A stretch of 11,743 nucleotides of DNA. It comes from a virus. Lineage: Duplodnaviria > Heunggongvirae > Uroviricota > Caudoviricetes. The DNA is taken from the IMG/VR virus record IMGVR_UViG_2645727555_000019; one strand, written 5' to 3'. The number at the start of each line of letters is the position of its first letter. Position 1 is the stretch's first letter. A program made the position numbers. Below are positions 1 through 3,000 of this stretch, in pieces.

Positions 1-3000
1 TTCCGTTCATATGAGCAAAAGTGGTGTTGAAGAAACATCCGTTTTGTGATGTTTTTTTAATCTTTTTGGGGTTTTAATTCCTATCGATGAACGTTACGGG
101 CAATTTTCACAGAGTAGTTAAAAGCTACTCTGTGCTTGAACTCACGTAAAGTTTCACCTTCAAGTTTGAAGAAGTGTTTTTCCTCAATGAAACGACCTTT
201 GTTTTCGTGGTGATTCTGGCGAATACGAATAGCTTCTGTGCCGTAAAGGTGCGCCAAAAGTTCGGTAGTGATAACGGGGATCTGCTTGTAAGTAATCGTG
301 GAGAGTGTTTCAACAGAGATTTGAGTTGTCATAATGACGCCCTCGAGTGGTTTCTTAATAACTCACCACCGACGACGCCAATCGTCTGGTGGTGAACTGT
401 GCAGGGTTGGCGTAACCGGGAAACCGACCGGCGCGGATCTCTCCGCCCCCACACAGCCCACCATAATTCAGATGTGCGCGTGCATACGACAATAAAAAAC
501 ACGCTCGCGGCGTGTATCTGTCGCGGTCTCTATCCAGGACGCCAATCCCGACGCCAGATTTTGCTGGCGCGTGAGGAATATAGCCCCGAATAAATCATCA
601 CGTCAATCACCTTGTTTTCCTCGCACGATGTCTTAGCCACCGGATATCCCACAGGTGAGCCGTGTAATTGAAGGCTTTAACGTCAGATTCTTTTGGGATT
701 GGCCTGGGTTTATTTCTGGAACGTTTCGTTGGAAGGTAATTGCAGTTTTCACAGACTATATCGGTAATGCTTCGTCGCTGTCGTCTCATTCATACCTCCT
801 GTCGGTAAATCTGACACCCTGCTCCACAGCCCAGGAAGTTGTGTACTCAATCAGGCTTGCCATACGCTTCACGCTCATCTGCGCACTGCTTTCGCGGATA
901 TTGACGTATTCACCTTCAAGACCAGGCAAAACATCAGCTTCCTGTTTTGTCGCCACGGCATGACCGCTGATTAACAAAACTTTCCACTGTTCTGGTTTTA
1001 GCCATCTGCCGCACCACTGAACCTGTCGGGAGATATCAGCGACCATCGCGTGAAATTTGGCATTTTGATCGAGATTCCGCTTGTAATCGGTGATGCGGAT
1101 CGTAACGGGTTTGTCTTTATCGAGAGTTGTTGCAAGGATGGCGTTAATGGCGAATTGTTGCTGCTGCTTACTTCGGAGGAAGATAGTCTGGTTCATTATT
1201 CCCTCTCACTGGATTTTCCCAACAAAAAAGGAGCCGAAGCTCCTTTAGTTTCAGAATTCAAATTGTCTTGCCCGTAGGCTTTTCAGCATTGGCATGGCCC
1301 GCTGGATAACGGAACTTGACATGTCGAGACGTGTTACCTCCCTCAGTAGCGCGTCTCTGTTCTTCGTCACCATGTAGATGGTCTCAAACGCAATGTCATA
1401 CAGCTTGTTCGTGTATGAGGAGTTCAGCTCTTTCATAATGGGATACAGGTGTTTGCTGATGTCCTGGGCTTTTTCCATCCAGAGCTGCATGTAGCAAAGG
1501 AGGATGATTTCTTCGGCTGTGAATTGTGGCTGAATCTGCGGCTGCTGTTCGGTTGGTGCTGTTTTTCCCTGGCTGAAATAGCAGTCTTCCAGTTTTTCGA
1601 ATACCTCCCACGCCCGATCGGTTTCGAGCATTTTTGCGTGACGGGCTGCGCCGCGTTCTGTCCAGAGGATGAGGGAGCGGGCATTTTTACCAACTAACCC
1701 GATTGTTTCGGGTCTGTTCTTAAACTCGCGTAATTCGTTTTTTTCAATTTTAAAGTAATGCTTTCCGGGCATGAATCGCGTCGTGTTGTTCAGAAAGTTA
1801 TCAGAAATGTTTTTGATTTTTGTTCCGTAAAGGTGAGCCAACAGTTCAGTAGTAATTACGGGGATCTGGTTATAGGTAACAGGGGAAAGGTTTTCGACAG
1901 AAATTTGAACAGCCATAATGACCTCGCGTTTCGATAATTTTTACCTCGCCACCGTCAGGTGCTAATCATCGTGGTGGCGAACTGTGCGGGGTTAGCACTA
2001 CCGGTCGAAACATCCGGCGAGCCTTTCGGCTCCCCCACACAGCCCGCCATAAATCGCGAATGTGACTGTGCTTAGCGCATAAAAAAACCGCCAGCGCGGT
2101 TATGCACCGTTTCGATATCCGGGGTGCTAATCCCGACGCCAGGTTTTGCTGGCGCGTGAGGAATATAGCCCCGAACACGCGACGTTGTCAAACTGATGGC
2201 ATTGCAGATCCCTACGCAATGTAACACTATGTGTTATACATTAATAACGGAACAAAAAATGCGCATTTTTAAAAACGCCTGGTTTGAGCGACTTGCACGC
2301 AAAACAAAATATCCGACCAATCACTGCGCGAAATTGTTAAACAGGCTGATAACGGGCTTATCTCAGCAAACCTGGGTAACGGCGTTATCAAGCAACGTCT
2401 GCCACGAGTCGGTGGCGGCAAATCTGGCGGTTATCGCACAATCATTTTCTATCGCGTCGGCACAAGGGCCTTTTTCGTATATGCATACGCAAAAAATGAA
2501 CGTGAAAATATAACCGCTACTGAGGAAAGTGCATTTCGGAAGGGGCTCCTCACGTACTCAATCTAACAGATGAACAACTGGCACAACTGATTCTACAGGG
2601 TCAGTTTACGGAGGTACCCAATGAGTAAAAATTACCGCAGTGATGCGCTTGCATCCGTACATGAAATGATGGAATCGCTTCATGATATCGGCGCAGTAAC
2701 GAAACAGACTATGCGAGAATTCGATGAAACTTGTCTCCAGCCAGCGCCGGTAATGTCTCCGGAAAGGATCCGTGCACTGCGCGAACGAGAGCATCTGTCT
2801 CAACCTGTTTTTGCCAGATACCTCAACGTCAGTAAAAACCTGATATCAGACTGGGAACGTGGTGTAAAACGGCCGGGAGGTGCCGCTCTTCGCCTTCTTT
2901 CAGTCGTAGAGAAAAACGGAATCCAGGTAATATCATGATACTCCAATACAACAAAACCCGCCGAAGCGGGTTTTCATTAGAAGCACCTTTAGTTTTGCTG

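Follow-up and report, generated by a model that had tools for sequence, protein, structure and literature searches.

An IsrK/C4-type RNA module upstream of an antirepressor gene in a lambdoid Escherichia coli prophage

The subject of this analysis is the region upstream of an antirepressor gene (ant) in IMGVR_UViG_2645727555_000019, a Caudoviricetes record of IMG/VR; the window, i.e., the whole stretch of DNA analysed, has 11,743 nucleotides and represents the nin region of a lambdoid, Stx-phage-like E. coli prophage. Ahead of ant, we identified a module composed of a promoter, an IsrK-like small RNA (sRNA) with a predicted terminator, and a leader that contains a homologue of the C4 antisense RNA; coordinates of this main module (copy 2) are given on the minus strand. 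The module is probably a three-part RNA switch of the P1 immI/Gifsy-1 isrK type, in which the C4-like RNA would mask the ribosome-binding site (RBS) of ant and the IsrK-like RNA would compete with it, turning ant on. The sequence parts, their family membership, the C4 fold and the three-way co-variation of the pairing words are observed directly. The main module is an undescribed but ordinary E. coli member of a known family.

The module begins with a sigma-70 promoter, TTGACA-18-TATATT, at 2191..2162, which matches 11 of the 12 consensus positions and is the strongest of four promoter-like sites within 1-2700. The transcription start probably lies at G2155, where the Rfam isrK model begins, in agreement with the Gifsy-1 numbering. 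The IsrK-like terminated sRNA, equivalent to the a1b1 leader unit of P1, spans 2155..2079 (~71-77 nt); in the predicted fold, hairpin 1 (2155..2136) is followed by a word a1 within a second hairpin, a word b1, and the terminator. This intrinsic terminator is weak, with an ACCGCG/GCGGU stem and its loop at 2101..2086 followed by U7 at 2085..2079, and its end is separated from the ant ATG at 1916 by 162 nt. A preliminary description of this DNA had proposed the promoter, an sRNA of ~76 nt with a terminator at 2081-2101, and a leader of ~160 nt; the promoter and the leader were found as described, and the sequence agrees with the predicted terminated RNA. An alternative hairpin, CGGUGC/GCGCUG at 2109..2092, overlaps the terminator and is mutually exclusive with the stem at 2101..2086. 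A candidate LexA box, CTGCAATGCCATCAG, located just 5′ of the -35 element, was rejected, as it has the form CTG-N9-CAG, not CTG-N10-CAG, and is not conserved in related modules. An opposite-strand RNA of the P22 sar type was also rejected, the plus strand having no promoter-like site in 1..2700.

A scan with the Rfam covariance models of C4 and its relatives, which had been proposed earlier as a check, gave minus-strand matches above the gathering thresholds of all three models (isrK, 50 bits; c4-a1b1, 46.7 bits; C4, 45 bits). The isrK model (RF01394) scored 74.3 bits at 2155..2081, and the c4-a1b1 model (RF03163) passed marginally, with 47.4 bits at 2168..2116. The C4 antisense RNA model (RF01695, clan CL00128) scored 75.1 bits at 2054..1970, which is the counterpart of STnc1160/“orf45” in Gifsy-1. 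Since the C4 model matches the leader while the isrK and c4-a1b1 models match the sRNA, the true c4 homologue sits inside the leader. The preliminary description had assigned the module to the P1 c4/immI type and had taken the terminated ~76-nt RNA as the c4 equivalent. The assignment to the family holds, given the three Rfam models and the P1 order of parts; the roles of the two RNAs, however, are reversed.

Based on the annotated ends of P1 C4, a mature C4-like RNA of 76 nt is predicted at 2048..1973; its 5′ junction, between UUAU and GG, matches the annotated 5′ end of P1 C4, and its 3′ tail is ACCA. RNase P processes the C4 precursor of P1 (Hartmann et al. 1995, as cited in PMC11143913), and by analogy it may excise the C4-like RNA of the main module. 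In its minimum free energy (MFE) structure, the C4 element has a long closing stem and two hairpins. Inside the C4 region, at the position of Gifsy-1 orf45, there is an open reading frame (ORF) of 31 codons (2050..1955, stop UGA at 1957..1955).

Two sets of repeated words connect the sRNA, the C4 element and the start of ant. In the first set, a1 GGGAUUAGCAC (2134..2124, core UUAGCAC at 2130..2124) is complementary to a′ GUGCUAACCC (1998..1989), which occupies the single-stranded joint of C4; the pairing comprises 10 bp with one bulged A. The word returns as the target a2 GAUUAGCAC at 1967..1959, 6-7 nt past the predicted 3′ end of C4, where the MFE structure places it in a 19-nt loop closed by an 8-bp stem, UCGCCACC/GGUGGCGA. 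Both the 10-bp complementarity and the recurrence of the sRNA word in a hairpin loop before the RBS had been noticed previously and are confirmed here. Four copies of the 7-mer TTAGCAC are present in the whole window, where 1.2 would be expected, and three of them fall within 172 nt at the main module in the order sense/antisense/sense. In the second set, b1 UCGAAACG (2115..2108) forms 8 contiguous pairs with b′ UGUUUCGA (2012..2005), which lies in the loop of C4 hairpin 2, and the target b2, again UCGAAACG (1934..1927), ends 1-2 nt 5′ of the Shine-Dalgarno (SD) sequence. The core of this triple is UCGAAAC (2115..2109, complement at 2011..2005, and again at 1934..1928), with the same layout as the a words. 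The earlier reading had missed the b1/b′/b2 triple and the link to IsrK. Additional targets elsewhere in the window were considered and discarded, the lone 7-mers at 4964, 4567 and 1621 being within chance expectation.

The start signals of ant, read from the sequence, are an SD sequence GAGG at 1925..1922 and an ATG at 1916..1914. The gene (1916..1251) encodes 221 amino acids with ORF6N and P22_AR_C domains (Pfam E-values 2.4e-20 and 3.4e-07, respectively), and its product is 80% identical to Gifsy-1 AnrP over 144 amino acids, in the N-terminal ORF6N domain. By its domains and its homology to AnrP, the downstream protein is thus a presumptive antirepressor, and the gene is intact, as had been stated earlier.

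The Gifsy-1 prophage provides the experimental counterpart of this arrangement. There, anrP is transcribed from the isrK promoter when RNA polymerase reads through the IsrK terminator, and the read-through RNA is translationally silent, with the middle of IsrK pairing ~30 nt downstream (Hershko-Shalev et al. 2016, PMC4825925). G28A/G31A and C162U/C159U compensate for each other (PMC4825925); in our numbering of the Gifsy-1 sequence, G28/G31 and C162/C159 fall on a1 and a′. When supplied in trans, IsrK raised anrP translation 139-fold and a transcriptional fusion 8-fold, and point mutants of the short RNA lost activation (PMC4825925). An RNA of ~80 nt, STnc1160, is processed from the read-through transcript and depends on the isrK promoter (PMC4825925); both IsrK and STnc1160 are abundant in lysogens (PMC7067206).

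These data bear on the proposal that the terminated 76-nt RNA of the main module is itself the c4-like repressor, which would pair with the leader at GUGCUAACCC and shut off ant. The complementarity between sRNA and leader is real, and the sRNA appears from its sequence to be a discrete terminated transcript, as that proposal demands. Nevertheless, we consider it very unlikely. The C4 covariance model matches the leader and not the sRNA; the words of the sRNA have the same sense as the RBS-proximal a2 and b2, so that it cannot pair with the ant start region to mask the RBS, but only with C4; and the homologous short RNA of Gifsy-1 is the activator just described, whose point mutants are inactive.

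The significance of the words was evaluated by comparing related modules. A pattern taken from hairpin 1 and a1 retrieved 120 viral contigs, which reduced to 77 distinct modules, with all parts parsed in 74. Because this pattern lies inside the module, the numbers of alleles and of their combinations are the meaningful counts, and not the number of modules. In 74/74 modules, a1 and a′ are exact reverse complements of each other, and a2 equals a1 in 73/74, the exception being a recombinant with a replaced downstream gene. Eight a-alleles were distinguished (GGCGU, AGCAC, GGAAC, AGGAAC, UGCAC, GAGAC, GGUCU and GGCAU). For the 14 b′-alleles, cognate runs average 7.1 nt with b1 and 8.4 nt with b2, compared with 4.2 and 5.7 nt, respectively, for non-cognate partners, and b2 lies at or over the SD sequence or the start codon of ant in every allele. 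The alleles reassort, as they occur in 22 a x b combinations. Further matched b-alleles are supplied by Lelliottia and Leminorella genomes; the allele parsing leaves out 7 Enterobacter loci from the genome scan.

The remaining parts of the module are also maintained. In an alignment of 21 sequences including P1, 99.5% of the cells of the C4 fold are paired and 15 of its 27 pairs show compensatory changes, whereas sliding the register of the partner strand as a control reduces pairing to 33-55%. The promoter, in the form TTGACN-18/19-TATA[T/G]T, is kept in 76 of the 77 modules with a variable spacer sequence. In nearly all 77, T5-8 follows a weak hairpin (4-6 bp stem, -5 to -8 kcal/mol) whose stem sequence comes in several versions, and these stem strengths are consistent with leaky termination as measured in Gifsy-1. 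Two natural recombinants were observed: m61 (L086) has a GGAAC-type a1/a′ with a GGCGU-type a2 and a replaced downstream region, and m76 (L121) has a UCAACC-type b1/b′ with a GAAACC-type b2. Such hybrid modules should be partly derepressed or non-functional.

Among the related modules, the small ORF inside C4 varies in length between 8 and 50 codons and encodes no conserved peptide, which argues that the RNA, and not the peptide, is kept by selection. A conserved protein-coding function of the leader was therefore rejected, with ORF length and stop position both varying, although orf45 of Gifsy-1 is translated. It is extremely improbable that the region as a whole is protein-coding or a decayed, non-functional remnant. 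ORFs do overlap it (1966..2178, 70 amino acids; 2072..2227, 51 amino acids), and other parts of the prophage are damaged, with an insertion sequence (IS) and a frameshifted toxin gene. However, three covariance models exceed their thresholds, and the base pairs show compensatory changes; the C4-internal small ORF, the sole internal ORF compared, varies in length and frame; and ant is intact. At least 13 E. coli chromosomes also carry the 284-nt control region with 100% identity, and a match of any quality was obtained in 541 of 5426 complete E. coli genomes (about 10%), although 313 of 542 records reach only 60-80% identity.

In the switch that we favour, one constitutive sigma-70 promoter (2191..2162) would drive both RNAs. 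Most transcripts would end at the weak terminator, giving an IsrK-like sRNA of ~77 nt that displays a1 (UUAGCAC) and b1 (UCGAAAC), and the transcripts that read through would carry the C4-like RNA, with a′ (GUGCUAA) and b′ (GUUUCGA) complementary both to a1/b1 and to a2/b2. The C4-like element would pair with a2/b2, either within the read-through RNA (in cis) or in trans once excised, probably by RNase P, and thereby close the ant RBS. The IsrK-like RNA would act as a decoy that competes for a′/b′ and, when in excess, would allow ant to be translated; the antirepressor might then inactivate a prophage repressor and lead to induction. The a and b words would set the specificity of the system, and no cross-reaction would be expected with copy 1, whose words differ. 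Behaviour of the E. coli copy like that of Gifsy-1 and P1, with C4 acting in trans, is what analogy with these two systems suggests.

A second way of reading the same parts, which we regard as unlikely, is termination control as in P4 CI and N15 CA, with the C4-like RNA pairing with nascent a1/b1 or a2/b2 and so determining whether RNA polymerase stops at the IsrK terminator or farther on; read-through frequency, and not RBS masking, would then be the main output. Since b1 abuts the hairpin at 2109..2092, which competes with the terminator stem at 2101..2086, C4 paired with b1 could tip the balance towards the terminator; this alternative hairpin, however, was encountered with this type of terminator only. 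In P1, repression of translation by C4 reportedly leads to premature termination, which we count in favour of termination control. The Gifsy-1 authors raised such a mechanism by likening IsrK/STnc1160 to P4 seqA/CI (PMC4825925), and the 8-fold rise of the transcriptional fusion points the same way, but it is far below the 139-fold translational effect. The location of b2 at the SD sequence or AUG in every allele also argues for control of translation initiation.

A further alternative that we consider unlikely, though slightly less so than termination control, is a strict version of the Gifsy-1 model, in which “C4” is solely a cis structure of the mRNA with an upstream ORF; the short RNA would open this structure, ribosomes would translate the small ORF and subsequently ant, and no processed repressor would exist. 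The MFE structure of 2155..1902 pairs GUCGGGAUUAGCACCCCGGAUAUCGAAAC with the b′-a′ stretch of C4, and this long a1b1:b′a′ cis helix, which matches the inactive “structure A” of the Gifsy-1 paper, is also the full-length MFE of copy 1 and of Gifsy-1; it speaks for the favoured switch as well. Additionally, the translation of orf45 and its coupling to anrP were demonstrated in Gifsy-1, where an AUGA overlap was necessary for coupling (PMC4825925), and the AUG at the 5′ end of C4 is kept in most modules. At the main module, however, the small ORF ends 38 nt 5′ of the ant ATG, without the AUGA overlap, and its counterparts differ in length and peptide as described above. The strict model also leaves a2/b2 without a role, yet they co-vary with a′/b′ in 73/74 modules and always lie at the SD sequence or AUG; it does not account for the full C4 fold being conserved with compensatory changes, P1-like ends included, nor for the ~80-nt processed RNA that exists in Gifsy-1.

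Several observations weigh against the switch that we prefer, in which a C4-like repressor is countered by an IsrK-like decoy. A constitutively expressed orf45/STnc1160 fragment enhanced, and did not relieve, IsrK toxicity in Gifsy-1 (PMC4825925), a result that does not fit the simple picture of C4 as a trans-acting repressor. As the AUGA overlap is missing from the main module, coupling by overlap cannot apply, and the route from IsrK to ant may differ from that in Gifsy-1. The icd gene of P1 is absent, the ant ATG (1916) being 11 nt past b2 with no intervening ORF. The comparative sample consists of fairly close relatives, so that module counts are not independent events. Finally, RNAduplex energies of whole IsrK or translation-start-region RNAs against the C4 core fail to separate cognate, non-cognate and shuffled partners (z -1.4 and -1.7), because GC-rich stems mispair; specificity was assessed by exact-word and longest-run counts in place of RNAduplex.

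The window carries a second IsrK/c4-a1b1/C4 module, copy 1, at 333-606 on the minus strand (promoter 606..577, IsrK 570..494, C4 468..385), located 1585 nt downstream of the main module, beyond ninB and ninE. Its three Rfam matches span 583..385, with 75.5 bits for isrK and 66.7 bits for C4, and its words are UUGGCGU/ACGCCAA (a) and GAGACCG/CGGUUUC/GAAACC (b). Cognate runs are 7/7/8/8 nt in copy 2 and 7/7/7/6 nt in copy 1, in contrast to cross-module runs of 2/2/5/5 nt, so that little cross-talk between the two copies is expected. Viral contig L026 has the two modules in the same tandem arrangement. The ORF6N antirepressor gene of copy 1 (332..81, minus strand) is truncated by an IS at codon 83: the first 88-93 nt of the window are the end of an IS3-family element, 100% identical to copies on E. 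coli plasmids.

Over 89..11653, the window is 99.86% identical to a prophage of E. coli strain FORC_069, in which the copy 1 ant gene is intact; the two sequences part at 88/89. The order of genes in FORC_069 is cI-like, cro, cII, O/P, hok/sok, doc, RelE/HTH, module 2 with its ant, ninB, ninE, and module 1 with its ant. The control region is without annotation in RefSeq. Divergent from the isrK-type promoter, a RelE/ParE-family toxin gene at 2259-2566 (plus strand) has an N-terminus, MRIFKNAWFERLARK, that is out of frame with the conserved body; compared with FORC_069 there is a 1-nt deletion near 2533, and the gene is probably a pseudogene. A near-palindrome is located at ~2220-2240, between this gene and the sRNA promoter. 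Farther away, a hok/sok type I toxin-antitoxin locus lies at 3883-4206 on the minus strand (Rfam sok, 116.9 bits; hokD annotated in FORC_069). An ORF by the replication genes (8201..8419) contains a direct repeat of ~60 nt, at 8214-8273 and 8305-8363, 91 nt apart, which appeared as cross-matching BLAST matches against FORC_069. The last 90 nt of the window (11654-11743) also diverge from FORC_069, indicating another rearrangement or junction.

Modules of this kind are known: the Rfam families go back to Weinberg et al. 2010 (PMC2864571), with the family in Rfam since that year, a homologue was dissected experimentally in 2016, and no new question is opened by the E. coli copy. Its most unusual features are the combinatorial a x b specificity code and the tandem orthogonal modules. 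Given at least 8 a-alleles, at least 14 b-alleles, 22 combinations and evident reassortment, we tentatively raise the possibility that the words form a combinatorial RNA “address” system, in which an IsrK-type RNA made by one prophage could activate the antirepressor gene of any co-resident prophage with a matching address. If so, tandem modules in one prophage would stay insulated, the c4 repressor of P1 and the IsrK activator would be halves of one anti-antisense switch, and an RNA layer would be added to the cross-talk of prophages during induction. Antirepressors can induce prophages independently of, or alongside, the SOS response, and the present prophage is of a type related to Shiga-toxin phages. 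In practice, the value of the finding is in the annotation and interpretation of the regions upstream of lambdoid ant genes, where the “intergenic” 300 nt 5′ of many of them encode two small RNAs with a predictable specificity code.

Among known systems, the small sar RNA of P22 also limits antirepressor synthesis at the ant RBS (reviewed in PMC12197685), but it is a true cis-antisense RNA from the opposite strand across that site, whereas here ant and the antisense RNA share a strand, with the RNA encoded upstream. P4 CI (seqA/seqC) and N15 CA are each an sRNA processed from the leader of the operon that it controls, and complementary sites lie both upstream and downstream of it, as is proposed for the main module. 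N15 CA is itself said to be a processed immunity RNA of this kind. By their descriptions, premature transcription termination is the main mode of action of P4 CI and N15 CA, and the genes controlled in P4 are those of replication.

Gifsy-1 shares with the main module the three Rfam matches in identical order ahead of anrP (isrK, 79.3 bits), ~80% DNA identity, the promoter hexamers and a terminated sRNA of 77 nt. The a word of Gifsy-1, UUGGCGU, is that of copy 1, while the main module differs from it in both a (UUAGCAC) and b (UCGAAAC). The small ORF of Gifsy-1 has 45 codons and overlaps the start of the antirepressor gene, compared with 31 codons and no overlap here; only Gifsy-1-type modules have the AUGA overlap. 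The main-module antirepressor also differs from AnrP in its C-terminal domain (P22_AR_C). The Gifsy-1 module directly follows the Q antiterminator gene (antQ), whereas the main module lies in the nin region after a divergent RelE-family/HTH pair, with the Q gene of the FORC_069 prophage ~4 kb downstream of the module. Unlike Gifsy-1, the present prophage carries its modules in tandem.

In P1, the annotated order of immI is promoter, a1, b1, C4, a2, b2, icd and ant, and the order and spacing of the parts are shared with the main module; a2/b2 are annotated as the sites for repressing icd ant translation. As here, a′ lies in the joint and b′ in a hairpin loop, the first gene downstream has b2 at its RBS, an antirepressor is controlled, and short words set specificity, as in P1/P7 heteroimmunity. 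Nevertheless, P1 has icd, apparently another Ant family and a plasmid, not lambdoid, prophage. Its immI has P1c4/P2c4 promoters and ant1/2, and no C1-type operator was identified at the main-module promoter. P1 scores 68.8 bits with C4, 51 with c4-a1b1 and 35 with isrK, the last being below threshold but covering the hairpin and U-run after b1. The IsrK paper never mentions P1 c4 (PMC4825925), IsrK and c4 appear as separate entries in a 2025 review (PMC12197685), and in APSE phages isrK and c4 matches have been seen together (PMC7313666). The P1 scores and order of parts indicate that the IsrK unit is homologous to the a1b1 leader of P1 and that the whole module is one family; thus, Salmonella IsrK and P1 c4, usually treated apart, are parts of one homologous module.

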